A DNA stretch of 64,000 nt. It comes from Chlorobiota bacterium. GTDB lineage: Bacteria > Bacteroidota > Ignavibacteria > Kapaibacteriales > NICIL-2. Position 1 is the first letter of the stretch; every line of letters begins with the position of its first letter. The position numbers were made by a program, and so were the translations under genes. Below are positions 5,177 to 64,000 of this stretch, one piece after another. The notes below the pieces were generated by a model that was not told where the DNA came from, ran no database searches, and saw only the letters and a program-made list of their open reading frames with translations. The DNA lies in contig JAOAGY010000019.1 of the NCBI GenBank assembly GCA_026415505.1, positions 7,485 through 71,484 on the forward strand, written 5' to 3'.

Positions 5177-5212
5177 CGCAGCAAGAGAAATTCACCATAT
5201 CCGGTTGCCGCA

Positions 5213-7186: not shown

Positions 7187-7198
7187 TGCACACTGCCG

Positions 7199-7837: not shown

Positions 7838-7947
7838 CGAGCGTTCCTGAATGCTCCTTTCTGCAACGCGGCATGTTGCAATTGCTCTACTTCCAGTACA
7901 ATGGGTCGTATGATCGTAGTTATCGGTATCACAATCTTCGATGCGCG

Positions 7948-8241: not shown

Positions 8242-8294
8242 GTTTGCTGATGCCGAATATTCACGAACGAGGGTATCACTTCGGCACGTTCAAC

Positions 8295-8537
8295 ATGCAA
8301 AAGCGACGTCCGACACTGTTTTCTCGCACAGTGCACACCGGCAAGCGCAGCTATTTTGTGGACGTCGAACAAGTGCGCACTGGAGAAAGGATCGTCTTTC
8401 TCATCGAGTCCCACGGCAAACATCAGACACGGTACCGTGTGCTGATACTTGAGGAAGATTTGCCGCGCCTCGTCGAGGCACTGGATGCTGCCGCGCAATT
8501 TTTGGCGGCGCAACCGAATCGACCGCCCAAGCGCTGA
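8295..8537 (+). CDS. DUF3276 / PUR-like nucleic-acid-binding protein
   Basis: LFSRTVHTGKRSYFVDV...LIESH...RVLILEED resembles the PUR-repeat family. Start reassigned to ATG 8295. Confidence 0.7.
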   Translation: MQKRRPTLFSRTVHTGKRSYFVDVEQVRTGERIVFLIESHGKHQTRYRVLILEEDLPRLVEALDAAAQFLAAQPNRPPKR

Positions 8538-8551
8538 ACAATCGCCGCTCC

Positions 8552-9046
8552 TTACCACGCCCAGCCGAGCGAGGCACCGCCGTAGGGCGCTACGATGACG
8601 TCGCCGCTGCTGCGCAGCAGCAACAACGGCGTCAGCGACAGTCGCAGCACAAAGCCGCCATCGAACGGCTGCAAGCGGTAGCCGAGCGTCAGCGGCACAT
8701 AAAATCGCGGCGTGTGCGCATCGTCCGACGTGCTGTAACCGCCAAGCGTCAACGACATCGCGAACATGCCCAGTCCGGCACCGGCTTCGAGATGATGCGT
8801 TCCGTCGGGATTGGTCAGCACGTAGCCTTGGGCAAACAGCCAGTACGCACGCGTGCCGAATGCGGGATATCCGCCGATGCGCATGCCATATTGCTCGTCG
8901 AGGCGGCGATCGTAGTTGAACGAAAACAGTATCCCCGCGCCCAGTGCTTCGAAATACGCGGCATCCTGAGCCAGAGTTTTCGAAGCATCCGCTGGCGGTG
9001 CTGCCACGGCAGCCACCGAAAGTGCGAGCAAAAGTATCGGTCGCAT
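8552..9046 (-). CDS. Secreted or small outer-membrane beta-barrel-like hypothetical protein
   Basis: Signal peptide MRPILLLALSVAAVAA, AYFEALGAGILFSFNYDR motif, alternating beta-strand pattern, aromatic C-terminus GASLGWAW. Confidence 0.65.
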   Translation of the reverse strand: MRPILLLALSVAAVAAPPADASKTLAQDAAYFEALGAGILFSFNYDRRLDEQYGMRIGGYPAFGTRAYWLFAQGYVLTNPDGTHHLEAGAGLGMFAMSLTLGGYSTSDDAHTPRFYVPLTLGYRLQPFDGGFVLRLSLTPLLLLRSSGDVIVAPYGGASLGWAW

Positions 9047-9212
9047 CGCATATCGCCCCGATTGTTCGACAGGCGAAAATACTTCGGGCGCCGAGCCGCA
9101 CCGGTACTCGAACGTAGCCGAAAGTCGCAGCCGATTCGTCTTCGAACGCAGAGAAGAATTCTCGCTCGCGTCGTAACTTATCGCTCGGTCGTTCAACTGT
9201 TGGAGAATTGCG

Positions 9213-11258
9213 ATGCCGGAATTGGACACGATCACGCTCTCGCCCCCGACTGTCAACGGTCACCGTATCAGCGGATCGCGCGCTGCGGCATACGAGGCGC
9301 TCCGTGCCGAGTACGAGCGTTTGCTCAGCCAGCTCGACTCCGACGTTCGGTCGCTCCTCGAACGCTGGCGGGAAGAGATGGAAGCGTATCGCGGCGAAGA
9401 ATACGTGTACACCGTCCGCGGACGCGAAATACGTGTGCGCAATCACGTCGAGTCACTCTCGCATCTGAAAATCCCGAAGATCGCCACGCCGCGTTTCAAC
9501 GATTGGGGCGACATCGTGCGCTGGGCGATGCAAGAAAACTTCCCCGGCAAGTTTCCGTACACTGCCGGCGTCTATCCCTTCAAGCGTCAAACGGAAGACC
9601 CCACGCGCATGTTCGCCGGCGAAGGCGGTCCGGAGCGCACCAACAAACGATTCCACTACCTGTCCTACGGCATGCCGGCAGCGCGGCTTTCGACCGCGTT
9701 CGATTCGGTCACGCTCTACGGCGAAGACCCCGACCGACGCCCGGACATTTACGGCAAGATCGGCAATTCCGGCGTGAGCGTGGCGACCGTTGACGATGCG
9801 AAAAAGCTCTACTCCGGCTTCGATCTCTGCGCACCGACGACGTCGGTTTCGATGACCATCAACGGACCGGCGCCGATGATTCTGGCGTTTTTCCTCAATG
9901 CCGCCATCGATCAAGAGTGCGAAAAGTACATCCGCGAGCAAGGCTTGACCGAAGCGATCGAGCGCCGCATCGAGGAAATCTATCGCCGGCTCGACCTGCC
10001 GCGTCCGGTCTATCGCAACATCGCGACCGGAGCACCGGCGGGCGAACTTCCCGAGGGTCACAATGGCTTGGGCTTGCTGCTTCTCGGTGTCAGCGGGAGC
10101 GAAGTGCTTCCGCCGGACGTCTATGCCGAGTGCAAGCGGCGTGCGCTCGAGCAAGTGCGCGGCACTGTCCAAGCGGACATTCTCAAGGAAGATCAAGCGC
10201 AGAACACGTGTATTTTCTCGACGGAATTCGCGCTCCGCATGATGGGCGACGTGCAGGAATACTTCATCGCCAATCGCGTGCGCAATTTCTACTCGGTTTC
10301 GATTTCGGGTTATCACATCGCCGAAGCCGGCGCCAATCCGATCACGCAATTGGCGTTCACGCTCGCCAACGGCTTTACCTACGTCGAGTACTACCTCTCG
10401 CGCGGCATGCACATCGACGATTTTGCACCGAACCTGTCGTTTTTCTTCTCCAACGGTCTCGATCCCGAATACTCGGTCATCGGTCGTGTGGCGCGGCGTA
10501 TCTGGGCGAAAGCGATCAAGTACAAATACGGCGGCAACGAGCGCTCGCAAATGCTCAAGTATCACATCCAAACGTCGGGGCGCTCGCTGCACGCACAAGA
10601 GATCGCCTTCAACGACATTCGCACCACGCTGCAAGCGCTCTATGCGATCTACGACAACTGCAACTCGCTCCACACGAACGCCTACGACGAAGCCATCACG
10701 ACGCCGACGGAAGAATCCGTTCGTCGTGCTGTCGCCATTCAACTGATCATCAACAAGGAACTGGGTCTGGCGAAAAACGAAAACCCGCTGCAAGGCTCGT
10801 TCATCATCGAGGAGCTGACCGACTTGGTCGAAGAGGCGGTTTATGGAGAGTTCCAGCGACTCAACGAACGAGGCGGCGTGCTCGGCGCGATGGAGCTGAT
10901 GTACCAGCGCAACAAGATTCAGGAAGAGTCGCTCTACTACGAATCGCTCAAGCACAGCGGACAGCTACCGATCGTCGGCGTCAATACGTTTTTGTCGAAA
11001 GACGGCTCGCCGACGATCGTGCCCGAGCAGGTCATCCGTTCGACGACCGAGGAAAAAGAACAGCAAATCGCCAATCTCGAAGCGTTCAAGCGTCGCAATG
11101 CCGAGCGCTCGGAAGCAGCGCTGAAGCGTTTGAAAGACACCGCCCGCCGCGGCGAGAACATCTTTGCCACGCTGATGGACGTGTGCACTGTCTGCTCGCT
11201 CGGTCAGATGACGCATGCACTCTACCAGGTCGGCGGACAGTATCGGCGGAATGTGTAG
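9213..11258 (+). CDS. Methylmalonyl-CoA mutase family protein, IcmF-type mutase domain only
   Basis: [65 protein letters not shown]. In-frame TAA at 9174-9176, so no upstream B12-binding or GTPase domains. Confidence 0.9.
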
Positions 11259-40050: not shown

Positions 40051-42863
40051 CGCTTGTCGGACTTGGGGCGTTGCTCGGTCGCTGTTCGGCATTGCATCGT
40101 CGCGAGCATACGACGGAGTTCGTCCGCCAAGGCAGCGTCACTTTCGCGATCGAGCATCGCGGCAAGCTTGCAGCGAAGCGGCGAACCAGCCAGCGCGCGG
40201 TAGAACGTCGCTCGCACCGACGGCGAGGACCGCGCTACGGTTCGCTCCAGCTCTTGCCACTGCGAGGCAAACGTTGCACTCGTCGAATCGAGCATTGCAG
40301 CACACAGCACGATCGAACGGCGCATGGCATCGCTTGTCGCATCGCGGAGCAGCACAGCCAGCGTCGCTGGATTCCATGCATCGCCGTAACGAAAACCCAG
40401 CACCGCACTGGTACGAACGATCGCTGCCGTGTCGCGCAACATGCGAAGAATGCGGTCGCGCACTGAAAGTCCCTCGACAGCACCCAACGCAGCAGCGACG
40501 CGTGCGCGTACCCACGGATGCTCGTCTTGCATGCGCTGAGCGACGTGCGGAACCAGATGCCGAAACTTGCCCTCGGCTACTTGCTGAAGTGCAGCAGAAC
40601 GAATTCGCCAATCCGGGTGGCGAAAAAATCGCACGAGCGAATCCGCCAACGCCGACATGCGACACTTCCCGATCGCCCACAGACAGAACTGCACCGTGCT
40701 CGGTCGATTCGACCCGAGCGAGTCGGCAATCAGTGCGGTCACCGCTGCCGAATCGGCGTGGTACAGACGCGGCACGATGTCTTCGAGCGCCAAGCGTTCG
40801 CGCGGGAAGATCGTGCCGAGCTTCGAAGCAATCAGCGGAAGCGCTGCCGTTCCACGCTCGACGATCGCTGTTCGCGCCGGTGCGACGTAGTGCTGGTATT
40901 TCTGCGGCGCAGTGCTCGCCAGCACGAACAAGCTGTCGAGCGATCCGGGCAGACTGACCGGCGAACGCTCGCGTTGCGGCGCGGTGTTCTCCCCCTGACG
41001 TGTGGCAGCGAGCGTGTCGTCGAGCGCAATCCCGACGGTGGATTTGATCGTCGTCGTTGCGTTGCCGAACTCGAACGCGTACCGATCGTTGCCGCCGGCA
41101 TCGACGAACACGCCGAGCATCGGCAGTCCGCGGCGCAGATCGGAAAATCCGCGCGTGTTGTCGTCGTTGCGCGCGATGTACGCATCGTCGCCAGCGGCAT
41201 CGAGAAAAATGCTGACAGCGTTCGCATTGCCACCACCGAGCGAAAGCGATTCGACGCAGTAGTTGTCGCTGCCTGCTTCGTCGAACAGCATACCGACGCC
41301 GACGTCGTGACCGCAACCTTGCGAGACACCGCGTGCGACGTACAGATCGTTGCCCTGGCGATCCCAGAGCAATCCATGTGCGAAGTGAATGCCCGCACCT
41401 TGCGCGTACTGGTAGGCGATGTAGCGATCTTCCCCACTGCGATCGTCGAGCATGCCGACACCGAACCAATACGCAGTGCCTTGCCCGTAGATGTCGCTCG
41501 TGTACACGTCGTTACCCGCTCGGTCGGTCAGCAATGCGATACCGCCGCTGGCGATCGGACGATAGCCGAGCGCTGCACCTTGCGTGAACGCCACATAGTG
41601 CGAGTCGTAGCGGAGCACGTCCACGAACGGACTCGACGTCGCGTAATGGTCGTTGCCGGCATCGTCGGCGAGGACTGCGACGCCGCGCGTGCCCGCGAAT
41701 GCTTGACCGTGTGCATACGCCGTGTAGCTATCGTTGCCGCTGCGATCGAGCAGGAGCGCAACGCCGAATACTGCCGCAGCTTGTGTGCAAACTGCGCCGA
41801 TGTACGTATCGTCGCCGCCATCGTCGCGGAGAATACCGACGCCCCACAAACCGCAGCCGAGCGAGAAATTCCCGCCACGCCAGATGTCGTTGCCGCCGAG
41901 ATCGAGCGCGATACCGCAGCCGGCGATACCGGCGCCGAGCGTGTAATCGCTGCCGATGTAGAGATCGTCGCCTCGAAGGTCGATGATCACCTGCACACCG
42001 CGCTGGAAGGCACGCTGTTTGGAGCTTTCCAGATGGTACGTGTCGTTGCCGCCGACGTCGAAGATGAAGGCAAAATCGCCGCGATAGACATCGTCGCCTG
42101 GTCCGCCGATCGCACAACGACCGTAGGGCGTATCCCAGACGATCGTGCGGATGCTGTCGCGGAGGAGCTGCTCGGCGCTGCTCGCTCGCTGAAGAACACC
42201 GGCGAGCTGCCCATACAGCCGAAGCCCTTCGGCAATGAGCACGGATGGATCGGCGAGCAATGCTTCCTCGAAGAACGCCCGCGCGATCGAATCGCCGCGT
42301 AGCTCAGCGGCTTTGAGTTGGTACGGATCGGCGTTTTCGTCGTCTTTCGAAAGCAACCACAGCGAATCGCTCTGCGCAAGAAGCAGCGGATCGCTGCGCA
42401 AAAACCGCCGCACGCTTTCGGTCGCTGCAAGGTACGCCGCGATCGGTCGGAGATACTGCTGCACGATGCTTTGATAGACCAGCGACGTTCGCAGAATGGC
42501 TGAGTCGCGAGGATCGGCGGGATAATGCTCCCACCCCGCCGCTGCAGTCGAAACCAGCGGCACAGTCCATCCGCCGAGTTTGACCAGTTGCTCCATCGCT
42601 TGTTGATTCATGCTAGTGCGGAGCGAATCGGCGATGGCACCGAGCTGCTCGGCAAGTCGCATCATCGCGAGTGGATCGCCGAAGATGCGCTCGACCGGTT
42701 CGAGGCGGTGACGATCGCGCGCGACGAGATCGCTCGGCAATGCAAGGTCGCTCCACCGCATGCCCAGTCGTTCGAGTCCACGCTCGACGAGCGATTGCGC
42801 GGTTTGTCCCATTGCAGCGGCGCCGATCGCGCATGCCAGAACGAGCAGCAAGTGCCATCTCAT
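40047..42863 (-). CDS. Secreted protein with Gly/Asp-rich (GxDxY) repeats and C-terminal HEAT repeats
   Basis: Signal peptide, about 10 D-x-G-N/D-D-x-Y repeats, HEAT repeats (WRIRSAA, PWVRARVAAALG). Confidence 0.7.
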   Translation of the reverse strand: MRWHLLLVLACAIGAAAMGQTAQSLVERGLERLGMRWSDLALPSDLVARDRHRLEPVERIFGDPLAMMRLAEQLGAIADSLRTSMNQQAMEQLVKLGGWTVPLVSTAAAGWEHYPADPRDSAILRTSLVYQSIVQQYLRPIAAYLAATESVRRFLRSDPLLLAQSDSLWLLSKDDENADPYQLKAAELRGDSIARAFFEEALLADPSVLIAEGLRLYGQLAGVLQRASSAEQLLRDSIRTIVWDTPYGRCAIGGPGDDVYRGDFAFIFDVGGNDTYHLESSKQRAFQRGVQVIIDLRGDDLYIGSDYTLGAGIAGCGIALDLGGNDIWRGGNFSLGCGLWGVGILRDDGGDDTYIGAVCTQAAAVFGVALLLDRSGNDSYTAYAHGQAFAGTRGVAVLADDAGNDHYATSSPFVDVLRYDSHYVAFTQGAALGYRPIASGGIALLTDRAGNDVYTSDIYGQGTAYWFGVGMLDDRSGEDRYIAYQYAQGAGIHFAHGLLWDRQGNDLYVARGVSQGCGHDVGVGMLFDEAGSDNYCVESLSLGGGNANAVSIFLDAAGDDAYIARNDDNTRGFSDLRRGLPMLGVFVDAGGNDRYAFEFGNATTTIKSTVGIALDDTLAATRQGENTAPQRERSPVSLPGSLDSLFVLASTAPQKYQHYVAPARTAIVERGTAALPLIASKLGTIFPRERLALEDIVPRLYHADSAAVTALIADSLGSNRPSTVQFCLWAIGKCRMSALADSLVRFFRHPDWRIRSAALQQVAEGKFRHLVPHVAQRMQDEHPWVRARVAAALGAVEGLSVRDRILRMLRDTAAIVRTSAVLGFRYGDAWNPATLAVLLRDATSDAMRRSIVLCAAMLDSTSATFASQWQELERTVARSSPSVRATFYRALAGSPLRCKLAAMLDRESDAALADELRRMLATMQCRTATEQRPKSDKR

Positions 42864-49133: not shown

Positions 49134-51296
49134 TCAGGGTCGAGTCAGTGAGCTGGCAGAACCGACGTAGCGAAAATCGATTTGACGACGTGAAAGGTGC
49201 ACTTCTTCGATCCGAACACGAACGCGCCCGCCGAGTTGAAAAATCTGCCCGTGATGCCGCCCGACGAGTGCATAGCGATGCTCGTCGAACACGTACCGAT
49301 CGCGCGGCAGCCAACGCACCGGACACAGTCCTTCGGCGTAAATGTCGTCGCACATGACGAAGACGCCGAAATCGGTCACGCCGGTGATCGTGCCGTCGAA
49401 TTCAGCGCCTTCGTGTTTGCGCGCCAGCAGCACTTGCGCGACCTTTTGCGATGCGCGTTCTGCTTCGACGGCGGTGCGCTCGCGCTCGGAACAGTGCGCA
49501 GCGATCGGTTCGAGTTCGTCGCGCAGCTGAGCCACCCGCTGAGGCGACGGTTTGCCGCGCGCGTACTCTTTGAGCAATCGGTGCACGACCAAATCCGGAT
49601 AGCGCCGGATCGGCGAGGTAAAATGCGTGTAGTCGCTGAAGCCCAAGCCGTAGTGCCCGATGTTTTCCGGCGAGTAGTGCGCTTTCGCCATCGAGCGGAG
49701 CAACACCATGTTGACGACTGCAGCTTCGGGACGATCGGCGACCTGCGCCAAAATGCGATTGATCTCGCGTGCGGAGAGCTGTCCGCGATGCGGCGGCACT
49801 TCCAGTCCGAGCGAACGAACGAACGCGACCGCCATGCGGAGCTTTTCGGCATCCGGTTCGTCGTGGACGCGGTAGAGAAACGGTAATCCGCCGCGAATCC
49901 GCCACTGCTTGCCGAGCATCGTGACGTGCTCGGTCACGCAACGATTGGCAGCGAGCATGCATTCTTCGACCAGTTGCGTGGCACGAGTGGAGCCTTTCAG
50001 ATACGCGCGCACGGGCTGCGCCATCTCGTCGAGTTCGAAGCGGAGTTCGAGCGTCGAAAAATCAATGCCGCCGCTTTCGAATCGCCGCTGGCGGAGACGC
50101 CGCGCCAATGCATCGAGCTCGGCGAGCAGTCCGGCATGATCGCCCCTGCCGGTAGCGAGGATGCCCTCGACTTCCTCGTAGGTGAATCGCCGCTTGCTCC
50201 GGATCGTGCTCTCGGTGATGCGATAGCCGAGGCGCTTCCCATCGGGCGTGAATTCCATCAGCACCGAATAGGCACAGCGATCGCGATCGGGCACGAGCGA
50301 ACAAACGTCCGTCGAGAGAATGTCCGGCAACATTGGCACGACGCCGTCCACCAGATACACGCTCGTGGCACGATCGAGCGCCTCGCGGTCGAGCGGCGAA
50401 TCCGGCGGTACGTATGCGCTCACGTCGGCAATGTGGACGCCGAGTACGACGTTGCCGTTGGGCAACGTTTCAAGCGAGAGTGCATCGTCGAAGTCTTTGG
50501 CATCAGGCGGATCGATGGTGACGATTTCCCACGCGCGGAAATCCTCGCGTCTGCCCGAGGTCATCGGCGACGACGCCGTCGAACGAGCGACAGCGACCGC
50601 CGGCGGTGGATACGACCGCGGCAGACGAAACTCGCGATAGACGCTTTCGAATTCCGAACGGACGCTGCCGGCGCGACCGACGATCTCGACGATTTCCGCT
50701 TCGGGATTGTGATGCGGCGATGTCCAGCGGACGAAGCGCCCGATTACTTTGTCGCCGGGTTTTGCGCCACCGAGCCGATCGGCAGCGACGAGAAAATCGA
50801 ACGGATAGACTTCGTCGTCCGGCACCAGGAAAAAGAAGCTGCCGTCGAAATCGAGCTTACCGGGGATCGGCGTGCCGCTACGCTCGACGATACGGACGAC
50901 TTCACCGCGCGGCTGTTTGCGTGGCGGCGTCGGCAGCAAGCGTACTTCGACGCGATCGCCGTGGAGCGCTGTGCCGCTGTCGCGACGACGGATCGCAATG
51001 CGCGGCAGTTTCGGATCGCCTGTTTCGACGTAGCTGGCGCCATCGCGTTCGACGACGAAGCGTCCGATGGAAGACGAATGTTCGGTGCCTGCCAGGGCGA
51101 ACCGTCGCCGTCGCGTTCGCACGAGCACGCCTTCTTCGACGAGCTGGAGGACAGTCTCACGAAGTCGCTCGTAGTCGTCCGACTCGCTGGACACGCCGAG
51201 CGCTCGTGCGATGTCGTGCAAGAGCAGGGGCTCGCCTCGCTGGGCGAAAAGCTGGAGGATATGAGAGCGTAAGTGCTGCGGCGATTTCCGATTCAT
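49134..51296 (-). CDS. rnr: Ribonuclease R
   Basis: TIDPPDAKDFDDA, EECMLAAN, YTHFTSPIRRYPDL, C-terminal S1 domain. Confidence 0.95.
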   Translation of the reverse strand: MNRKSPQHLRSHILQLFAQRGEPLLLHDIARALGVSSESDDYERLRETVLQLVEEGVLVRTRRRRFALAGTEHSSSIGRFVVERDGASYVETGDPKLPRIAIRRRDSGTALHGDRVEVRLLPTPPRKQPRGEVVRIVERSGTPIPGKLDFDGSFFFLVPDDEVYPFDFLVAADRLGGAKPGDKVIGRFVRWTSPHHNPEAEIVEIVGRAGSVRSEFESVYREFRLPRSYPPPAVAVARSTASSPMTSGRREDFRAWEIVTIDPPDAKDFDDALSLETLPNGNVVLGVHIADVSAYVPPDSPLDREALDRATSVYLVDGVVPMLPDILSTDVCSLVPDRDRCAYSVLMEFTPDGKRLGYRITESTIRSKRRFTYEEVEGILATGRGDHAGLLAELDALARRLRQRRFESGGIDFSTLELRFELDEMAQPVRAYLKGSTRATQLVEECMLAANRCVTEHVTMLGKQWRIRGGLPFLYRVHDEPDAEKLRMAVAFVRSLGLEVPPHRGQLSAREINRILAQVADRPEAAVVNMVLLRSMAKAHYSPENIGHYGLGFSDYTHFTSPIRRYPDLVVHRLLKEYARGKPSPQRVAQLRDELEPIAAHCSERERTAVEAERASQKVAQVLLARKHEGAEFDGTITGVTDFGVFVMCDDIYAEGLCPVRWLPRDRYVFDEHRYALVGRHHGQIFQLGGRVRVRIEEVHLSRRQIDFRYVGSASSLTRP

Positions 51297-56539: not shown

Positions 56540-57541
56540 TTACTTTTTCGGTTGGTTCGACTTTCGTGTGGTGGATGCTTTTTTCGGGGTCGCTTTCGAT
56601 GAAGTTTTCTTTGCGGGTGTTTTTGCGGGAGTCTTTTTCGGTGCAGCGCCGAGAACGTCAGCGACCGTGCGTCCGATGTGCGCCGGCGACTCGACGACAT
56701 GCACGCCGGCACGACGGAGCGCAGCGAGCTTAGCATCGGCTGTGCCTTTGCCGCCACTGATGATCGCGCCGGCATGTCCCATGCGGCGCCCGGGCGGTGC
56801 AGTGCGTCCTGCGATGTACGCAACGACGGGCTTGCGCACGTGTGCAGCGATGTATTCGGCTGCTTCTTCTTCGGCGGTACCGCCGATTTCACCGATGAGC
56901 ACGATCGCTTCGGTTTGCCGATCGGCATTGAACAGCTCCAACGCATCGACAAAGCGCGTCCCGACGATCGGGTCGCCACCGATACCGATGCACGTGCTCT
57001 GTCCGATGCCGAGCGAGGTCAATTGCCAGACGGCTTCGTAGGTGAGCGTTCCCGAACGCGAGACGACACCGACCGGACCGGGCGTTGCAATGAAACCGGG
57101 CATGATGCCGATTTTGCATTCGCCGGGCGTGAGCAAGCCGGGACAGTTCGGTCCGACCAGCCGCGAACGCGAGCCACGAAGCGCTGCCCACACGGTGCGC
57201 ATGTCGCGAACCGGTATGCCTTCGGTGATGGCGACAATGAGGGGCACTTCTGCTTCGATCGCTTCGAGTATGGCATCGGCTGCCATCGGTGCGGGAACGA
57301 AAATGCACGTCGCATCGGCACCTGTTTCGGCAACCGCTTGGCGGACAGTGTCGAAGACGGGAACCTCGCGCCCGAACTGATCGCTACCTTTGCCGGCATA
57401 GGGCATGCCGCCTTTGCCGGGAGTGACACCGCCGACGACATTGGTGCCGTAGGCAATCATCTGGGCGGTGTGAAACGTGCCTTCCGAGCCTGTGATGCCT
57501 TGCACGATGAGCCGTGTCCGGCTATTGCAGAGGATGCTCAT
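56540..57541 (-). CDS. sucD: Succinyl-CoA synthetase alpha subunit with a Lys/Ala/Pro-rich tail
   Basis: [35 protein letters not shown]. Start at ATG 57541. Confidence 0.96.
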
Positions 57542-57614
57542 AGAAACGCCGAAAAGTCGTGTGTGACTGTCAACAGGCTGCAAAGTTACGGCATCGGCTT
57601 CTCCGCAAGACAAA

Positions 57615-57642
57615 CGGCGCACCGCTCGACAGCAGTGCGCCG
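57615..57642 (-). terminator. Cassette-boundary terminator hairpin H1
   Basis: Minus strand CGGCGCAC-T-GCT-GTCG-AGC-G-GTGCGCCG followed by TTTGTCTT. The 33 bp at 57610-57642 are identical to 59349-59381. Confidence 0.75.
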
Positions 57643-57668
57643 CTGCTTTCGTTTTTGTCGGGGGTCAC

Positions 57669-58406
57669 CTATTTGCTCGATGCAGGAAGAACAAATGTGC
57701 TCGAAAGTCCCTGACGCTCCGACAACGACATTACTTCCCAGTAATAGCGACCTGGCTCGACCGGCGGTAATTGCAAACGAACGATATGCTCGCCAGCAGT
57801 CGTAAGAGTTGTCGTTTCGGTTTTGATAACTCGCTCGGATTCGTCCGACGATCGCTCGAAGACACGAACGGTTACATCCATCGGCTTTTTGACCCGACAG
57901 TGCAGATCGAGCGATGCTGCTTCGCCATTCCAGTGTGCGAAGACAGTATCGAAAACGAATGCGTAACGACGAAGCTTCGAACGTGTCCGGAAATCAAGAC
58001 CAGCCGGCAATTCAATCGAAGGAAGAATCACTTCTACCGAATCACTCGAACAGCCGCGTTGGACCGTTGCCATGACGTTCCCATCGGCATCAGTCACCTG
58101 TACACTCCAACCGTTCGAGCCTGATTGGCAAACGACCGGTGCAAACGACGCCGTTGCCCAACCAGAAACATATCCTATCGTTCGCTTGCCAGTCATGCCG
58201 ATCGGTCCCTCGCAAATCGATCCATCGCATTCATGGACGACTTCCCAGTCGTGCTTGCCATCACCATTACGATCCTCGATGACACGCCATCCCCACCCGC
58301 CATTCGGTCCAGGGCACTGCCAATAGCTATACAATGGATCGGCAGCCTTCCCATAAAGACTCAGCGCAGCAAGTACCATCGTGACTGCAACTATCGTCGT
58401 TTTCAT
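57669..58406 (-). CDS. Secreted Cys-rich protein with a DRNGDG loop and a C-terminal Ig/CTD-like domain (paralog P1)
   Basis: GGAGG RBS 7 nt before ATG 58406. Signal peptide. N-domain aligns with 58423-59121. Confidence 0.75.
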   Translation of the reverse strand: MKTTIVAVTMVLAALSLYGKAADPLYSYWQCPGPNGGWGWRVIEDRNGDGKHDWEVVHECDGSICEGPIGMTGKRTIGYVSGWATASFAPVVCQSGSNGWSVQVTDADGNVMATVQRGCSSDSVEVILPSIELPAGLDFRTRSKLRRYAFVFDTVFAHWNGEAASLDLHCRVKKPMDVTVRVFERSSDESERVIKTETTTLTTAGEHIVRLQLPPVEPGRYYWEVMSLSERQGLSSTFVLPASSK

Positions 58407-58422
58407 GACCATTCCTCCGTCG

Positions 58423-59121
58423 TTAGCGAGACAGAACAAACGGGATAAACTGCGCATTCGATTTGTGTCGAACGACTGCAATATAAATGCCATCTGGCAA
58501 ATTGCTCGGCAGCTCAATTGTCAGCCGTTCATTGCCTGGACTCGACCAGACGCTTTGATGCACACTCTGCCCAGTGGATGAATAAACTTCGATACTCACT
58601 CGACCATCGAAATCGCCGGTAATTGTCACTGTGCCCATTGTTGGGTTGGGAGAAACTCTCGCCACCGATACATCGCCAGGGATGTGGCTGATGAGCCCCG
58701 AGGCATAAACGATTTGTGGGAGTGAGTCTCCACAGGTTTGGATTACCGACCCAAGCAGTAACGAATCCTGTGTGTACAAGTCAACCCGCCAGAGCCATCG
58801 CCCATTCTCACACCGTGAGGAGGTAAAATCCACTCTGAATGGTTGTTCGGCAATTGTCCCAATGGGATGTGCTACCATTTGAATTGGCTGCGAGCAGAGC
58901 GACCCATCGCATCCTCTGACTGTGATCCAGTCATACTGACCATCACAGTTGCGGTCTTCCCTTACTGACCATGCAACACTGCCGTTCGAACATGTAATGG
59001 TTGTAAACTGCGGAGGAAGACAATCCTTCTGCATATCGCAGATATTGTGGGCAGGGTTGTCTCCTGCGTATGCCTGTACCAGACACGCAAGGACACAGAG
59101 AAGAAGCGGGATAGTGTTCAT
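58423..59121 (-). CDS. Secreted Cys-rich protein with a T9SS type-A sorting tail (paralog P2)
   Basis: Signal peptide. CTD-like SPNPTMGTVTI...IEVYSSTGQSV...LPDGIYIAVV. Confidence 0.8.
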   Translation of the reverse strand: MNTIPLLLCVLACLVQAYAGDNPAHNICDMQKDCLPPQFTTITCSNGSVAWSVREDRNCDGQYDWITVRGCDGSLCSQPIQMVAHPIGTIAEQPFRVDFTSSRCENGRWLWRVDLYTQDSLLLGSVIQTCGDSLPQIVYASGLISHIPGDVSVARVSPNPTMGTVTITGDFDGRVSIEVYSSTGQSVHQSVWSSPGNERLTIELPSNLPDGIYIAVVRHKSNAQFIPFVLSR

Positions 59122-59158
59122 GTTTACCTCACTATTGTTTGTACACTCTTTCCACCGT

Positions 59159-59395
59159 CCCTGCTGGCGCGGCAGGTGTTATCCCACGTGCAGTGGAATG
59201 TCGGCGATGCGCCGCGCATCTCATCCCCGTACATCCACTGCAGCCAGACAACACTCCAGGGGAATAGGTGGCACTGCGAATGTAAAAAAAAAAAAAAATT
59301 AATTCTCAATGAATTTTTCGCCTCTTGCAAAAAAATTTTTTCTCGATAACAAACGGCGCACCGCTCGACAGCAGTGCGCCGTCGCTGGGTGTGTT
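59159..59395 (-). repeat. Cassette head, copy A: terminator H2, AT-tract, promoter with T15, structured leader
   Basis: Collinear with 63161-63395. Identical 30-mer TTAATTCTCAATGAATTTTTCGCCTCTTGC. H2 at 59354-59381. Confidence 0.92.
59279..59309 (-). promoter_or_regulatory. Putative sigma70 promoter with a poly(T)15 spacer (19 bp)
   Basis: TTGAGA (59309-59304), ATTAA plus T14, TACATT (59284-59279). Confidence 0.55.
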
Positions 59396-59436
59396 GTCGG
59401 AGAACATACCAGGAGTAGCGATCGCTCAGCTTTTCC

Positions 59437-60915
59437 CTACGGCTGTACAAGAAGCGGCAGCGTAATAATGCGCTCGCCATTGTTGAGTCGCAAGAAGTAC
59501 ATTCCTGGTGGCAGTTCAGGAAGCTGTGCCGAATACGTCCCCGCCTGGTGCCACCGATCGCATATGATCGCTACCTGCCTCCCTCCAAGGTCGAACAACG
59601 ACAGACGAACTGTACTCGGTGTTTCGATACTGTAGCGGATGGTATGCCCCGACGTTACAAACGTTGCCGTTTCCTCGATGGGCAAGGCTACCGAAGTAGT
59701 AGTTGTATCGATAATCCACGATGCAATGTAATTGACTCGAACATTAGCAGCACCGGCATTGGTAAATCCACCACCGACGTAGAGCCGATGACCATCATTC
59801 GAAAGCGTGGTCACGCGTCCATTGACACCCGATTCGAGTGTATCCCATTTGTTTTGATCGAAATCATACACAGCAATATTCCGTGCGGGTATCGTTCCTG
59901 CTTGATCGAAACTCCCACCGACGTACAGACGACGCCGCTGCTTGTCGAGATTCATCGAGAAGACCGCATAGTACTTGACTTGTGACGTCGCAGTATCGCG
60001 CCACACACCACCGCCGAGAGTACTCCATTGTTGCCGACGAGTGTCGTAAATGAGCAAGCCGCGCGCCTCTATTTGCCCGAAACGATCGAACTGTCCCCCG
60101 ATGATGAGACTGTCCCCTACACCAACAATCGCATTTGCAAGGACTGCATCGTCAGCAGAGCTGACCTTGAAATGTGCGCCGGGCACGCTGTCCCACTGCT
60201 GGGATTGGCTATCGTACCGAGCAATGCCTACAGCCCGCTTGCCATCAACGTGTGTAAACGCGCCAATAGCGTAGAGAGACTCCCCGACTTTGGCGACCGC
60301 ATCCACAGATGCTCCACCGAAGAGCGAATCGTCGAGCTGTTCGAATCTCCCCAATCCTTGCCATTTGCGCGTTTGCAGATTGTACTTGGCAAGACCCGAT
60401 GCAGCGACATTTTCTATGCTATCGAATGAACCACAGACGTAGAGATCGTCACCATCTCGATAAAGGTTGAACACGCCTTGTAAACCTCCGCTGATGTTGC
60501 TTGCAAAGCACTCCCACTCTTGCGTTCGGGTATTCCATGCAGCAAGAGATTGGCACGGATTGTTACCAGCGTTTTCGAATAAACCACCGACGACAAGCAG
60601 TGTATCGCCATCGCGCACAATAGGTAGAATCGCGTGAACATTCCCATCAACCCCCGCACCGAGCGCGTACCACCGCCGGTCGGTCCAGTTCCATCGTGCG
60701 ATCATCGAGGTATTCATTCCCCCAGCACGAGTAAATATGCCCCCGACATAGAGGTTCTCTCCCATCGGTACGATAGAGTAAATCAGAGGAACCGGGGAAT
60801 AGAGACCGCTACCCAATGCTTGCCAGCGTGTCGTGGGTTGTGCAGTGGCAAGCACAACCACCAACGCGGTAATGGAAAACAATGCGATTATGTTGCGAAT
60901 CGTTGCCATCGTCAT
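59437..60915 (-). CDS. Secreted beta-propeller protein with a T9SS type-A sorting tail
   Basis: Repeats of WxxLGxG...LYVGGxFxxAG...IAxW. CTD-like SLFDLGGRQV...LPPGMYFLRL. Confidence 0.82.
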   Translation of the reverse strand: MTMATIRNIIALFSITALVVVLATAQPTTRWQALGSGLYSPVPLIYSIVPMGENLYVGGIFTRAGGMNTSMIARWNWTDRRWYALGAGVDGNVHAILPIVRDGDTLLVVGGLFENAGNNPCQSLAAWNTRTQEWECFASNISGGLQGVFNLYRDGDDLYVCGSFDSIENVAASGLAKYNLQTRKWQGLGRFEQLDDSLFGGASVDAVAKVGESLYAIGAFTHVDGKRAVGIARYDSQSQQWDSVPGAHFKVSSADDAVLANAIVGVGDSLIIGGQFDRFGQIEARGLLIYDTRRQQWSTLGGGVWRDTATSQVKYYAVFSMNLDKQRRRLYVGGSFDQAGTIPARNIAVYDFDQNKWDTLESGVNGRVTTLSNDGHRLYVGGGFTNAGAANVRVNYIASWIIDTTTTSVALPIEETATFVTSGHTIRYSIETPSTVRLSLFDLGGRQVAIICDRWHQAGTYSAQLPELPPGMYFLRLNNGERIITLPLLVQP

Positions 60916-62723
60916 TTGTCGTGATGTGAGACATCATGCAAGGAAAAGTACACAAGTGATGTTTCGAGAGAAGACTGGTATAGACCTGCAATCTTTTTAC
61001 GTGATGCATCGTACGCAATATCGATAAAACCTTGCCCGAGATATTGTCGTGGTAATTGCACTTCAGCGACCAGTGTCGCTGTTCCAAGATCATATTGCTG
61101 TAGAATCCAGTATCCACGTTCGGGCATGTCAAGAGGGAAGCCAAGTTCTTTCACTTTCCAAAGTACGAACACGCTCGACGGTGTTAGAATTACTCGTTGT
61201 ACCCTCGCACCTGCAGAATCGAGGAGATACTCAACCTCACGGGCTTTCGGAACAGCCGTTCGCCGCGACAATCTGTTGGTGTCCAACATTCCAGCATTCC
61301 AATAGTGTTTGAGCTTAATTGTGCGCCCATCACTGAGTTGAACTTCTGGTACGAGCCACTGCACCCAGCCACATAATCCATTTGTTTGATCACAACTAAG
61401 ATGCTCTGCCCCATGAACGGCTAACCCCAGTCCATGCTTTTTACCGATCGCCTCATCGAGTACACCCAGCGTAGAATCACGGAACATGCCGGTGGCTAGA
61501 TTAAATGCTCCATAAAGTGGAGCATACGTGTAAAACGAATCAGCAATAGGATTCTCAAACGGGTTCCGAGCCAACAATGTATCTGACCCCATAGCCAGAT
61601 ACCCTCGACGGAAGGGTAAATAGAAATTCTCTTTCCCAAGCACAAAACCACTCCCAGGATGAAATGTCCCTTCGGCACAATAGTCACCAGTGCAATAGGT
61701 GCGAGTCATTGGCTGAAATTCAGCAATTTGCACAATCTTTTGGAATGGAGGTTCGTACGCAAGAATGTAGTAGCACTTGTCTATGCCAATATTCTCTGCG
61801 CTGAAATGCCTAACATACGCGCTAATCTGAATTGTCCACAATAGTGAGTCTTGAAATTGCGGTTGACACAAGTTACCTACGAGATACCTCTTGATAGCCT
61901 TGTATTCGCTATCGATAAGAAACCACGTGCGTCCCCGTGATGCAGCTGGATTGGCTACAATGTGGGCAGCCTGTGAACCCTTAGAGACATCAAATACTCG
62001 AATCCCTTGCGTGTAAAAATCCAGTGCTGCAAACCACCTACCATCGGATGAGAAAACTGGTGAGAACAATTGACCAGTCATAGTTGTACTGTCATCTTGT
62101 AAACGGACACGACTCACCATTTCGACAATAGGACATGATACTTCTGGTGTACCAACAGAGATCGCATGAAACTGCTTTCTCACTGTTTGGAGATACCCTC
62201 GGGGCAGCAATGGCGAATTCGTAGCATTGAGTGAATCCATAAAGTAGCTGAGTTTATCACCTGTCGGTGCATGGTTCACCTGTGCCCACCACCACAGAGT
62301 ACCTGTAGAATCCCATACTGTCATCCATGGGAGCGATGGCTCCCACGCATTTATGGGCTTGAGTAGAACACCTGTGGTATCAATTACTACACGGCACTTC
62401 CACTGATTGGCACGGACGTATGCATAATCCGCATAGTAACGCTTTCCACGGACGATTGCGCTAACAGAACCCGAGAATTTAGCCTTCTGCAAATCCTCAC
62501 TCAGCTTTCCAATCAGTGCTTCTCCCCAGAAAAACGAGCGAGGTGCTGAAACGATAAAGATGACGTGAAACCGCGCCTTATTGTTTTGCTGGCGGATAAA
62601 CTCATGGATAACACTCGAACGCCCGGCGAACCGGAAGATGCTTGTTTTCTCTACGTACTCGTCCTCACTTTGGCTGAGAACAACCATTACACATCCCAGA
62701 AATATTGCAATGAATCGTTTCAT
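60912..62723 (-). CDS. Secreted protein with a thioredoxin-like N-domain (no CxxC) and a beta-propeller-like C-domain
   Basis: 603-aa AT-richer ORF with a signal peptide. Stop overlaps the next ATG (ATGA). Fold assignment is by sequence pattern only. Confidence 0.6.
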   Translation of the reverse strand: MKRFIAIFLGCVMVVLSQSEDEYVEKTSIFRFAGRSSVIHEFIRQQNNKARFHVIFIVSAPRSFFWGEALIGKLSEDLQKAKFSGSVSAIVRGKRYYADYAYVRANQWKCRVVIDTTGVLLKPINAWEPSLPWMTVWDSTGTLWWWAQVNHAPTGDKLSYFMDSLNATNSPLLPRGYLQTVRKQFHAISVGTPEVSCPIVEMVSRVRLQDDSTTMTGQLFSPVFSSDGRWFAALDFYTQGIRVFDVSKGSQAAHIVANPAASRGRTWFLIDSEYKAIKRYLVGNLCQPQFQDSLLWTIQISAYVRHFSAENIGIDKCYYILAYEPPFQKIVQIAEFQPMTRTYCTGDYCAEGTFHPGSGFVLGKENFYLPFRRGYLAMGSDTLLARNPFENPIADSFYTYAPLYGAFNLATGMFRDSTLGVLDEAIGKKHGLGLAVHGAEHLSCDQTNGLCGWVQWLVPEVQLSDGRTIKLKHYWNAGMLDTNRLSRRTAVPKAREVEYLLDSAGARVQRVILTPSSVFVLWKVKELGFPLDMPERGYWILQQYDLGTATLVAEVQLPRQYLGQGFIDIAYDASRKKIAGLYQSSLETSLVYFSLHDVSHHDK

Positions 62724-62765
62724 TGGACTCTCCGCAGATCTAAGCCGTCTTTCACAAAGAAATAC

Positions 62766-62801
62766 GGTACTGCAGGGCCGCCGCTATAGCCCTGCAGTAC
62801 C
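62766..62801 (-). terminator. 13-bp perfect hairpin between the small Cys-rich gene and its partner (attenuator or stabiliser)
   Basis: GGTACTGCAGGGC-10 nt-GCCCTGCAGTACC, followed on the minus strand by GTATTTCTTTG. Confidence 0.7.
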
Positions 62802-62813
62802 AACTCTGGCGAT

Positions 62814-63146
62814 TCAGGGAAGCAGAACATAGGCTTCCGTTCCTTCTTGGTTAGTCCCGGTGAAGATGCACTCCGACTGGAACGATTGCGAGCCAAAGTC
62901 GAAGAGATACAAATCGTCTGGGAATGGACTACCAACTCGGACGCCCACTTGGATTTCTGCACATTTGTGAGTGCAATTCCCTTCACACCAAACCCGCCCA
63001 TTTTCGTAGTGTCCTTCGCAGCCATAGAGAGTAATTTTTCCCTTGTCAATCCCCAGAGCGTACACCTGACTCACGCTCAGCAATGCCCCTGCCAAGAGTG
63101 CTTTCGCAAGGAATCTCATCGGGATGCTCCACAGTTTGTTGAACAT
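62814..63146 (-). CDS. 110-aa secreted Cys-rich protein
   Basis: GGGAGGG RBS 9 nt before ATG 63146. Signal peptide ending VYA. Five Cys in the mature part. Confidence 0.75.
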   Translation of the reverse strand: MFNKLWSIPMRFLAKALLAGALLSVSQVYALGIDKGKITLYGCEGHYENGRVWCEGNCTHKCAEIQVGVRVGSPFPDDLYLFDFGSQSFQSECIFTGTNQEGTEAYVLLP

Positions 63147-63160
63147 GCTTTTATTCCCTC

Positions 63161-63395
63161 CCCGGCTGGCGCGGCTTGTGTCGCGCTCATCGCAGCAGAC
63201 CTCGAGAAACGCCGCGCCCCTTGTCTCTCCGCCAACTGCAACGACGCAACACAACAGCCGGGAAGAAGCGGCACGACAAAAGTAAAAAAAAAAAAATTAA
63301 TTCTCAATGAATTTTTCGCCTCTTGCAAAAAATTTTTTTACCCAGACAAAGAGCGGCGCACCGCATCGCTGCAGTGCGCCGTCGCTGGGTGTGTT
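63161..63395 (-). repeat. Cassette head, copy B: terminator H3, AT-tract, promoter with T13, structured leader
   Basis: Collinear with 59159-59395. H3 at 63354-63381 shows a compensatory GCT/AGC to GCA/TGC change and a GCGA (GNRA) loop on the minus strand. Confidence 0.92.
63279..63307 (-). promoter_or_regulatory. Putative sigma70 promoter with a poly(T)13 spacer (17 bp)
   Basis: TTGAGA (63307-63302), ATTAA plus T12, TACTTT (63284-63279). Confidence 0.55.
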
Positions 63396-63405
63396 TGTTG
63401 CCGGA

Positions 63406-64000
63406 TTATCGAGCTTCGGAGCGTAGTGCCAAGTGTTGCAAATCAGCCAGAGTCAGCCGCCGCCCGCCCAAGAATCGCTTGCGGTAGTACGTGCTTTCCA
63501 GCGAGGATATTGTCACACCATACCGAGAGCTCGCGTGAGCGAAAAGGTTGTCGCCCAAGTAAATCCCCACGTGCGACACCCACGCATGACTGCGCGTGTG
63601 GAAGAAAATCAAATCGCCGAACCGAAGCTCCTCGGCTCGCTCGATGGGCTGACCGTAGGCGAATTGTTCCTGCGCAGTACGCGGTAGCAGTGCTCCCGCA
63701 CAGGCTCGGAACAGAGCCTGCATGAACGCCGAACAATCGATACCATCGGCGCTGCTTCCCCCGAAGCGATAGGGACGACCGAGCCACTCCATGACGAAGT
63801 CCATCACTTTCCGCTGCGACAGCCCCGATGGCAACTCCTCCCCATCGAGATACGCCATCCACAGCGCGCGTATCGTCGCGATGTCCACCTGAACGTCGTC
63901 TTCGCGGGCGACTTCCTCGGCGTCGTCACCGTCGAGAACGTTCGTAGCGGCGCTGTCGCGCAATCCCGCCAGTTGTTGCAACGTCGGCGATGCCTGCGAC
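63406..64000 (-). CDS. NlpC/P60 family peptidase, 5'-truncated by the window edge
   Basis: WLGRPYRFGG, GIDCSAF, LPRTA, GDLIFF, SHVGIY, FAHAS. Frame is open to the window end. Confidence 0.93.
   Translation of the reverse strand, partial: SQASPTLQQLAGLRDSAATNVLDGDDAEEVAREDDVQVDIATIRALWMAYLDGEELPSGLSQRKVMDFVMEWLGRPYRFGGSSADGIDCSAFMQALFRACAGALLPRTAQEQFAYGQPIERAEELRFGDLIFFHTRSHAWVSHVGIYLGDNLFAHASSRYGVTISSLESTYYRKRFLGGRRLTLADLQHLALRSEAR

Follow-up and report, generated by a model that had tools for sequence, protein, structure and literature searches.

Two operons for exported proteins preceded by a shared promoter-leader module with a candidate cis-regulatory RNA in an uncultured Kapabacteria-type bacterium

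We analysed a 64-kb stretch of DNA (64,000 nucleotides, referred to as the window) from an uncultured hot-spring bacterium of the Kapabacteria type. Read on the minus strand, the locus described here has the order NlpC/P60, operon A, operon B and sucD, with all cargo genes on one strand. The 5.8-kb interval between NlpC/P60 and sucD is a low-GC island of genes for exported proteins. GC content drops from about 0.60 to 0.45-0.55 across 57.6-63.4 kb and GC3 is 0.44-0.54 in the cargo genes versus 0.66-0.74 in flanking genes, in agreement with the initial annotation, which had called the cargo AT-richer by eye. The upstream flank is an NlpC/P60 peptidase gene (63406-63981, minus strand; Pfam PF00877, E = 1.4e-28), whose open reading frame continues toward the window end (homologs have 248-252 amino acids) and which shares 75-87% identity with its positional counterparts in relatives. 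The downstream flank is sucD, encoding the succinyl-CoA ligase alpha subunit (56540-57541, minus strand; identified by Pfam), with 89-92% identity to Kapabacteria relatives.

Operon A consists of three genes on the minus strand. The first, s110 (62814-63119), encodes a small secreted Cys-rich protein with homologs of 100-103 amino acids and with no Pfam or NCBIfam family; its likely true start is MRFLAK... (101 amino acids), and a GGAG is found 8 nt before that ATG. Between s110 and u603 the hairpin scan identified a hairpin followed by a T-rich tail (62765-62802, minus strand), likely an attenuator or partial terminator. It is kept, with a changed stem and a GGCGGCGG-type loop, in six of eight other intergenic regions compared, and the hairpin or its loop is missing in locus L090 and in the duplicated operon (A') of locus L093. 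The second gene, u603 (60912-62723), encodes an exported protein for which an AF2 model (mean pLDDT 81.8) predicts an N-terminal thioredoxin-like alpha/beta domain, with no CxxC, and a beta-propeller. The u603 family has only 31 matches among 1.84 billion representatives, and fold search returned generic propeller matches only, among them NHLRC2 (Trx-like plus NHL). The third gene, kelch492 (59437-60915), encodes a Kelch/Rax2-type beta-propeller (Pfam PF12768, E = 6.9e-39) with a C-terminal sorting domain (CTD) of the type IX secretion system (T9SS; TIGR04183, 27.5 bits versus a cut-off of 23). No such T9SS CTD was found in s110 or u603.

Operon B encodes two paralogs, also on the minus strand. 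The c232 protein (58423-59121) has a Cys-rich beta-sandwich domain that contains an EDRNxDGxYDW motif and, after it, a T9SS sorting domain (PF18962, 30.9 bits versus a cut-off of 27; TIGR04183, 28.6 versus 23); the C-terminal domain of its AF2 model matches the T9SS substrate CTD 8glk_D (TM 0.78), and a search with c232 gave one homolog only. Its paralog c282 (57669-58412) has the same N-terminal domain and a different C-terminus that is CTD-like by alignment only; an alignment (A7) contains 27 invariant columns, including the Cys residues and the DRxxDG motif. Fold searches gave only generic propeller and beta-sandwich matches, and the window's own kelch492 and ndk had no record in the contig index searched. 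At least two of the cargo proteins, c232 and kelch492, are predicted from their sorting domains to be handled by the type IX secretion system, and hydrophobic N-termini resembling signal peptides were recognized by eye in all five, so that the earlier claim that all cargo is exported holds.

A hairpin, termed H, with the motif GGCGCACTGC-N6-GCGGTGCGCC occurs three times on the minus strand, compared to about 0.02 occurrences expected by chance. We found the copies where they had been claimed, at 57616-57641 (H1, motif match), 59355-59380 (H2, motif match) and 63355-63380 (H3, hairpin scan and motif). The 33 identical bases of H1 and H2 form a 33-bp direct repeat that brackets promoter, leader and operon B. 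With its stem of 10-12 bp and its position directly after the stop codons of NlpC/P60, kelch492 and c282, hairpin H is likely the terminator of the respective upstream unit, that is, of the NlpC/P60 gene (H3), operon A (H2) and operon B (H1). Only H3 passed the T-run rule of the hairpin scan; the tails read GTTTGT or CTCTTTGT, and the U-tract (GUUUGU) is weak. In the closest relative, L098, operon A is also preceded by a hairpin with the loop AGCGAT, as in H3.

Each operon is preceded by a copy of a common head. A 32-nt core of the head is exactly repeated at 59299-59330 and 63297-63328 (minus strand; 0 expected by chance). Of the head of roughly 235 bp that the initial annotation placed twice at a distance of exactly 4000 bp, the two copies and the 4000-nt start-to-start spacing of the hairpins stand; the head is not uniform, and the promoter cores are 3998 nt apart because the T-runs are T15 and T13. 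The exact spacing of 4000 is meaningless in itself. Between the two window heads, identity is 85% across 5' flank, hairpin and promoter, including a 56-nt block at 98%, and only 55-60% in the leader part.

Both heads carry a predicted promoter of the Bacteroidota/Chlorobi RpoD type, TTG-N20/22-TAnnTTyG, with putative start sites; the published Bacteroidetes/Chlorobi RpoD consensus is TTG-N17-23-TAnnTTTG (10.1101/172254). Specifically, pattern matching identified TTG-N20-TACTTTTG for operon A (63277-63307), where a T13 run at 63284-63296 makes up most of the spacer, TTG-N22-TACATTCG for operon B (59277-59309; T15 at 59284-59298), with a -7 box matching the consensus at seven of eight positions, and TTG-N22-TAACTTTG for sucD (57581-57613), all on the minus strand. 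These are the only matches to the motif on this strand within 57.4-63.5 kb, and the GTAACTTTGCAG box upstream of sucD is conserved in all relatives examined. A search of RNA runs found none that contains this DNA. The T-run of orthologous heads has a length of T13 in L098, T12 in L086 and T8 in L090 and is entirely missing in those relatives that carry a sigma-like gene. The promoters of the two heads, in which a T13 or T15 run separates TTG from TAnnTTTG, resemble phase-variable promoters with poly-T or poly-C spacers that drive fimbrial or outer-membrane protein genes; unlike in those, the tract variation seen here (T8-T15) is between copies and species, with only contigs compared.

Downstream of the promoter, the head continues into a rod-shaped leader RNA of about 125 nt, which was detected on the minus strand at 63151-63283 (copy A; covariance model R1, 79.4 bits, E = 2.5e-22) and at 59149-59281 (copy B; 70.4 bits, E = 1.9e-19). 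Both the apical loop of the rod (GYGCGGCG) and a 3' bulge complementary to it (GCCGCRC) are conserved. Minimum free energies of copies A and B are -63.8 kcal/mol (z = -3.2) and -62.6 kcal/mol (z = -3.6), respectively. One long hairpin (-51 to -70 kcal/mol) was obtained with ViennaRNA for nine of nine copies folded, and a shuffle test with seven copies yielded z = -2.0 to -4.2. Owing to 3-9 G-U pairs, the fold of the sense strand exceeds that of the antisense strand in stability by 10-23 kcal/mol. A rod is found upstream of A or B in every lineage with a recovered upstream region, and a rod 3' end lies at the contig starts of L091, L097, L099 and L100. Model R1 recovered two copies on which it had not been trained (L092, 100.5 bits; L098, 71.9 bits); the rest of the 64-kb window and the distant relatives L001-L006 yielded no convincing match. 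Screening of window positions 57400-63500 and of L093 positions 4500-10000 with the 4227 models of Rfam 15 gave nothing above noise. Downstream of the rod, copy A has a TGTTCAAC box (63138-63145, minus strand), the counterpart of a (G)TTGTTTCAC box in most heads; a TGTTYMAC box before the ribosome-binding site occurs in copy A and in most heads of relatives and is weak or absent in copy B.

In a sequence-only alignment 77.7% of the cells were paired, versus 37-53% with slid partners. Changes on both sides were found in 29 of 47 rod pairs, and the observed score was reached by none of 500 shuffles, in a set of nine non-independent sequences (L092 is close to L093, and L084-B to L094) from which the tested structure was itself derived. 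In the loop-bulge helix, pairing reaches 95% and two pairs are compensated. These compensatory changes argue for a structured leader RNA with a conserved secondary structure, and we consider it a new candidate cis-regulatory RNA motif with good support. This leader is the most interesting part of the locus. It would add a cis-regulatory RNA from uncultured thermophilic Kapabacteria, a lineage in which gene control is almost undescribed, and the motif is tied to secreted or T9SS proteins, whose evolution has by far outpaced that of the neighbouring proteins.

Similar to Rfam 'Cis-reg' leaders from Bacteroidota/Chlorobi, the rod is situated between the promoter and the first gene of an operon, has its structure kept by compensatory changes and the sequence of its unpaired loop and bulge conserved, and is repeated before functionally linked operons. 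Unlike those leaders, it is a single long rod with no multi-stem junction, it neither visibly masks a ribosome-binding site nor forms a terminator, and its known occurrences are confined to a single locus in one narrow Kapabacteria group. Three simple modes of action were considered and rejected, namely a leader peptide (the ATG is not conserved, and by eye the conserved GCCGC block lies in differing frames), an intrinsic terminator or attenuator (no U-run follows the rod) and masking of the ribosome-binding site (in nearly all copies the GGAG follows the rod at a distance of 20-40 nt).

The two most conserved blocks of the rod are mutual reverse complements and change together in the same lineages, as co-evolving half-sites would, and a regulator-like gene adjoins the head in four relatives. 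The rod might accordingly act as DNA, with a transcription factor, perhaps the sigma-like protein, binding GYGCGGC and GCCGCRC as inverted operator half-sites, and a palindrome that is incidental or a binding aid. However, the 29 covarying rod pairs lie outside these motifs, the better sense fold through G-U pairs is unexplained by binding to double-stranded DNA, and the half-sites are about 45 nt apart, which together make this a very unlikely account.

Comparison with twelve related loci from about nine Kapabacteria lineages, with gene maps obtained by tblastn (one match carries the source name 'Candidatus Kapaibacterium sp.'), revealed that operon A (Cys-rich s110, Trx-like/propeller protein and Kelch protein with T9SS tail) is present in every relative and operon B (two Cys-rich beta-sandwich paralogs) in some relatives only. 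As the initial annotation had claimed, the units are modular in order and content. Whereas the window has A followed by B, L084 has B followed by A (NlpC, sigma-like gene on the opposite strand, B, A, sucD), L092 and L093 have B-A' followed by A and L094 has A alone, in these three cases next to a sigma-like gene on the opposite strand, L086 has A followed by DUF429 and L090 has A only; L096 and L099 carry A in a different neighbourhood. The junctions between arrangements fall at head copies. The check that had been proposed, comparing the interval between NlpC/P60 and sucD across relatives, has therefore returned different sets and orders as well as an empty site for B, which is the A-alone arrangement. 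Identical content and order in all relatives with no empty site, which the initial annotation had named as refuting its reading, is not what the relatives show.

Operon A is ancestral at the NlpC/P60-sucD site, and the cargo seen in about nine lineages amounts to two sets and one paralogous duplicate (A'), for which reason the proposed loading of different cargo into a standard expression frame found no support. The rearrangements lie between species-level or deeper lineages, and the cargo proteins are only 35-64% identical across lineages; u603 is 64% identical between two genomes in which sucD is 98% identical. The nearest relatives among species genomes by sucD (L001 and L002, 72%) keep sucD-ndk and downstream genes, in L002 including a nudix gene, have no cargo, and are too distant to inform on the locus.

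The leaders cluster by genome and not by cargo. Identity between the A and B copies is 99% in L093, 89% in L092, 60% in the window and 59% in L084, and copies in different lineages, close relatives excepted, are 42-71% identical. In L093 the two heads hardly differ over some 240 nt, which could in principle confuse short-read assembly; the contrast between the window and L084 is independent of that. Furthermore, the L094 head tracks the B-head of L084 as far as the 3' end of the rod (mostly 72-100% identity in stretches of 25 columns), and past this point the cargo is operon A in L094 versus B in L084. From the differences in order and content at heads together with the homogenisation within genomes we infer homologous recombination and gene conversion between heads. 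Comparable 100-250-nt direct repeats kept near-identical by gene conversion, and serving as crossover points for deletion, duplication and reordering, are found where repeated regulatory regions evolve in concert (rRNA operons, duplicated promoters, paralogous surface-protein loci). Unlike at those loci, the repeat described here is a promoter-leader module before two unrelated operons and not a repeated gene.

A purely regulatory duplication, in which the head was copied once and the differences among relatives are unrelated indels in a variable region with no head-to-head recombination, would fit the presence of operon A at the same site in most relatives, the depth of the lineages with their divergent cargo, and the Logan contigs, in which minor variants are dropped and no within-population variant was seen. 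It does not fit the homogenised leaders in at least two lineages (99% and 89%, against 42-71% between lineages), the switch between L094 and L084 exactly at the rod end, or the bracketing of B by identical 33-bp hairpin copies in the window, and we regard it as unlikely. Two artefacts were discarded: an 822-nt deletion joint inside u603 that appeared at 80% likeness was gone at 95%, and a contig break at 62524-62553 was a Nextera adapter branch.

The locus had initially been likened to an integron or shufflon. Integrons are characterized by an adjacent intI gene (CALIN have none nearby and keep attC sites) and by mostly promoterless single-ORF cassettes, and shufflons by short inverted repeats, an Rci-type recombinase and segments that are inverted within a gene. 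The likeness to a shufflon fails, since all repeats here are direct, the genes lie on one strand and six relatives have no recombinase within 10 kb. In an integron- or CALIN-like array the rods would be attC-type single-stranded sites for a recombinase encoded elsewhere that captures and shuffles cassettes. The resemblance is considerable: as in integrons and CALIN (PMC4889954), tandem units of the same orientation are separated by imperfect palindromes of about 125 nt, which keep their structure while their sequence drifts, fold better on one strand and are homogenised within a genome, like the attC sites of sedentary integrons, and unit order and content vary between relatives. Moreover, attC clusters without a nearby integrase are known (PMC4889954).

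Nevertheless, the R'' (RYYYAAC) and R' (GTTRRRY) boxes were absent on both strands near either end of all twelve copies, the R and L boxes of integrons being missing, and Pfam lists of called genes for 10 kb on either side contained no recombinase family, integrase included, in six relatives (L084, L086, L090, L092, L093 and L094). The conserved sequence is in the apical loop and bulge and not at the hairpin base, the units are operons of two to three genes with their own promoter-like sites, and the repertoire is closed at two cargo sets in about nine lineages. An integron-type array is highly improbable on these grounds, and the head is most likely a conserved regulatory module and not the recombination site of a dedicated system. 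Of the suggested growth by insertion or recombination at a terminator-promoter unit, the junctions at heads remain, and the dedicated cassette system falls with the missing attC boxes. Repeated structured palindromes between units on the same strand can be regulatory leaders, and tests for attC boxes and integrase separate the two kinds of array cleanly.

As a long imperfect palindrome that is intergenic and probably transcribed, the rod also resembles ERIC- and MITE-type repeats, and the head or rod might be a MITE- or REP-like element, small, mobile and non-autonomous, that landed upstream of the operons by chance. This is barely credible, given that every copy found precedes operon A or operon B, with orthologous placement across about nine lineages, and that terminal inverted repeats with target duplications were not observed. 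The head core had no exact match in 185,579 species genomes, and a 20-mer search of JGI metagenomes returned three chance matches with dissimilar flanks. In the source metagenome (run X1) no further genomic context for head or hairpin was seen beyond the three known copies, since every loose end was one of these or adapter.

Considering all of the above, twin operons under one shared head, reshuffled by ordinary recombination between the head and hairpin repeats, are the probable explanation of the locus as judged from sequence comparison. Two independent operons of rapidly evolving exported proteins would each be driven by one copy of the head and ended by one copy of hairpin H, and the shared head would place A and B under the same control. 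The leader would most likely act post-transcriptionally, by stabilising the 5' end or by switching between the rod and the loop-bulge helix in response to a protein or to temperature. Heads and hairpins being direct repeats, homologous recombination and gene conversion between them may have moved, duplicated, deleted and homogenised units in different lineages. The locus would then be a natural example of operons that are reordered, duplicated and lost via common promoter-leader modules. A more far-reaching version, which we consider rather unlikely, is a new class of RNA switch that alternates between rod and loop-bulge helix in response to temperature or a protein and coordinates T9SS surface proteins, with its copies as crossover points that make the operons portable. 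If true, this would amount to a cassette system free of recombinases, with operons portable between positions and lineages.

The sigma-like gene of the relatives is divergently oriented, contains an ECF-type region 4 and adjoins the first head in L084, L092, L093 and L094. All its matches are below curated cut-offs, its N-terminal half is Cys-rich and unlike region 2, and no anti-sigma gene was evident. The gene is missing at the locus in the window, L086 and L090, and a tblastn search of the 64-kb window found no homolog (best E = 0.06). The position of an ECF-type gene next to the first head in four relatives recalls ECF sigma regulons of envelope and T9SS proteins; unlike in these, the locus in the window has no such gene adjacent to its heads. 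The Cys-rich ECF-sigma-like protein encoded beside the rod in relatives is one possible protein trigger for an RNA switch.

The most valuable product of this analysis is a well-supported candidate for a new RNA motif, a rod-shaped leader of about 125 nt recognised by sequence comparison. Protein searches and contig look-ups retrieved twelve loci related to this one, representing about nine lineages (one homologous protein carries the source name 'Candidatus Kapaibacterium sp.'), and in every lineage with a recovered upstream region this element precedes operon A (s110-u603-kelch492) or operon B (c232-c282). Nine of nine copies fold as a single long hairpin with -51 to -70 kcal/mol, and comparison with shuffles gave z-scores of -2.0 to -4.2 for the seven copies tested. 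In each leader the apical loop (GYGCGGCG) and a 7-nt bulge on the 3' side (GCCGCRC) are conserved. These two motifs could be DNA half-sites. Folding favours the sense over the antisense strand by 10-23 kcal/mol and involves 3-9 G-U pairs, which points to selection on the leader as RNA. In a MAFFT alignment built without structure, 77.7% of cells pair, as compared to 37-53% with slid partners, 29 of 47 pairs have changed on both sides, and none of 500 shuffles reached the observed covariation score. Loop and bulge are themselves complementary (95% paired, two compensated pairs, also in the RNAalifold consensus), and as this pairing crosses the rod helix it would require an alternative conformer or a pseudoknot. 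A covariance model of the leader, R1, retrieved copies on which it had not been trained (100.5 bits in L092 and 71.9 bits in L098) as well as partial rod copies at contig starts, and had no matches in the distant relatives; Rfam gave no match to the leader. Elsewhere in the window only two 16-bit R1 matches were detected, at 40862-40944 (-) and 49954-50039 (+) with E about 0.03, which are probably noise.

On the minus strand the gene order is NlpC/P60, hairpin H3, head A, s110-u603-kelch492, hairpin H2, head B, c232-c282, hairpin H1, sucD, ndk and nudix, where each head comprises a putative promoter and the leader. The initial annotation had described hairpins, heads and a compositional island from the sequence, and this observation was confirmed. 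The pattern GGCGCACTGC-N6-GCGGTGCGCC, with a chance expectation of about 0.02 matches, occurs three times as claimed, at 57616-57641 (H1), 59355-59380 (H2) and 63355-63380 (H3), all on the minus strand, and H1 and H2 have 33 identical bases in common. The head was thought to be a unit of about 235 bp present twice at a distance of exactly 4000 bp. There are indeed two copies, which can be aligned from about 59395/63395 as far as the start codons, but identity along them is uneven: it is 85% over the 5' flank, hairpin and promoter (98% in a 56-nt block) and just 55-60% over the leader part. A 32-nt core is exactly conserved at 59299-59330 and 63297-63328 (minus). The spacing is 4000 or 3998, since the two T-runs are T15 and T13, and the round figure is meaningless. 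Among the relatives, hairpin H and the 32-nt core are confined to the clade of the window and L098, while the leader is distributed more widely. The Logan contig of L098, the closest relative, begins exactly at the 5' flank of an H3-type hairpin (CACACCCGGCGAC..., L098:1-20), as expected if this segment were repeated in that genome too.

The Bacteroidetes/Chlorobi RpoD consensus TTG-N17-23-TAnnTTyG, as quoted in 10.1101/172254, has exactly three matches on the minus strand between 57.4 and 63.5 kb, namely head A, head B and the sucD promoter. The T-run forms the promoter spacer and measures T13 and T15 in the window, T13 in L098, T12 in L086 and T8 in L090. Relatives that carry a sigma-like gene have a promoter without T-run, and their CATKGRRAWTGG block corresponds to CATTGAGAAT of the window. 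A (G)TTGTTTCAC box lies downstream of the rod in most heads. The likeliest start of s110 is at 63119 (minus). Between s110 and u603 (62765-62802, minus) there is also a strong hairpin whose tail is T-rich. It occurs at the same position in six of eight other intergenic regions compared (L084, L086, L093, L094, L096 and L098), with changed stems that covary completely and a GGCGGCGG-type loop; the hairpin or its loop is missing in L090 and in the paralogous s110'-u603' copy of L093. The loop resembles GCGGCG in the apical loop of the leader, and both may represent a common protein- or RNA-binding motif.

Mapping of the related loci by tblastn revealed different arrangements of the two operons. 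The window has the order NlpC, A, B, sucD, while L084 has NlpC, the sigma-like gene (-), B, A, sucD. In L092 and L093 NlpC is followed by the sigma-like gene (-), B with a tandem s110'-u603' paralog, and A, with sucD next in L093 and the contig of L092 ending inside A. L094 and L095 contain NlpC, the sigma-like gene (-), A and sucD; L086-L089 contain NlpC, A, a DUF429 gene and sucD; L090 and L091 contain NlpC, A and sucD. In L096, L097 and L099 operon A is followed by unrelated genes, and the short contig of L098 holds head A and operon A. Comparing the interval across relatives, as had been proposed, therefore uncovered differing sets and orders, including sites without B such as L090 and L094. 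From these arrangements, operon A is the ancestral state at the NlpC-sucD site. Three lineage groups have operon B, positioned on either side of A, and one has the tandem s110-u603 paralog. Operon A also occurs outside the NlpC-sucD site, since in one lineage (L096:1-5200, L099:1-5200) two small unknown genes and one large helicase gene, in place of sucD, come after it; both contigs start within the rod leader.

Several features bear on how the units were rearranged. Leaders cluster by genome and not by cargo: A- and B-leaders are 99% identical in L093, 89% in L092, 60% in the window and 59% in L084, and copies from different lineages, close relatives excepted, are only 42-71% identical. The two L093 heads are near-identical across about 240 nt. 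The L094 head tracks the B-head of L084 as far as the rod's 3' end, with mostly 72-100% identity in each 25 columns, after which the cargo is that of A, a pattern expected from a head-to-head crossover deleting or adding B together with one head. In the window, promoter, leader and B are flanked by the 33-bp identical H2 and H1, and H2 itself is a mosaic with an H3-like 5' flank and promoter and an H1-like loop and 3' tail. The contrast between A/B and B/A order is independent of long repeats; the two L084 heads share only 59% identity, and no exact repeat in the window is longer than about 50 nt.

The idea of a modular cassette locus holds in so far as the units are modular and were reshuffled at the heads in relatives, but it errs in proposing a dedicated, open-ended capture system, the cargo set being closed. 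The suggested likeness to integrons or shufflons was not borne out. With reference to the integron and CALIN definitions (PMC4889954), no integrase was found within 10 kb in six relatives and no R boxes of attC in 12 of 12 rods, and each unit, unlike an integron cassette, has a promoter-like site of its own, while the cargo is closed; membership in either class was therefore rejected, as was that in shufflons because the repeats here are direct. Closest in kind are structured leader RNAs, of which this would be a new motif, and concerted evolution with rearrangement via repeated regulatory regions. In X1, the hot-spring metagenome run of origin, which contains 99% of the window's sampled words, Logan contigs end at the repeats, and no third context was found because all loose ends at head or hairpin represent the three known copies or adapter. 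The head was absent from 185,579 species genomes and from JGI metagenomes except for chance 20-mers. A contig break at 62524-62553 traces to a Nextera adapter branch, while a seeming deletion within u603 is spurious.

A divergent gene of 210-216 aa adjoins the first head in four relatives (L084:9072-9722 (-), L094:2317-2949, L093:4641-5273 and L092:7117-7764). At the C-terminus its product matches ECF sigma region 4, with all matches below curated cut-offs, and the N-terminal half is Cys-rich. The gene does not occupy this position in the window, L086 or L090, and no homolog was found within the 64-kb window. By inference only, its product is a candidate for a factor acting on the heads in trans.

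As claimed initially, the cargo is AT-richer than its flanks: GC falls from about 0.60 to 0.45-0.55 in the interval, and GC3 is 0.44-0.54 as compared to 0.66-0.74. Cargo GC is about 0.5 irrespective of host GC, and cargo GC3 stays at about 0.45-0.55 in genomes of differing GC (window 57669-63119 compared with L086 and L093), so that the contrast to the flanks is greatest in the window. Identity to the window proteins is 75-95% for flanks versus 35-61% for cargo; between L084 and L094 sucD is 98% identical and u603 only 64%. This fast divergence at steady GC3 is suggestive of diversifying selection or of alleles being exchanged between lineages. In L084:12340-15504 the u603 and kelch homologs are each broken across two frames, and in L093:5627-6340 gene calling divides the c232 homolog into two ORFs of 111 aa; in both cases the alternatives are pseudogenes and assembly/sequencing errors.

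Export of all cargo proteins, also proposed before, agrees with signal-peptide-like N-terminal segments in five of five (by eye) and with a T9SS sorting domain above curated cut-offs in c232 and kelch492. The C-terminal domain of c232 matches a T9SS substrate CTD, and c232 and c282 have a beta-sandwich domain in common that is Cys-rich and carries an EDRNxDGxYDW motif. The structure model of u603 (pLDDT 81.8) has a thioredoxin-like alpha/beta domain at the N-terminus, which lacks CxxC, and then a beta-propeller, with fold matches to generic propellers only, including NHLRC2, and the family has 31 matches among 1.84 billion representatives. By appearance the cargo may be surface or secreted binding proteins. 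The neighboring sucD of the window has a C-terminal tail of about 35 aa that is rich in Lys/Pro/Ala/Thr (56540-56650, minus), with relatives aligning only to about residue 297.
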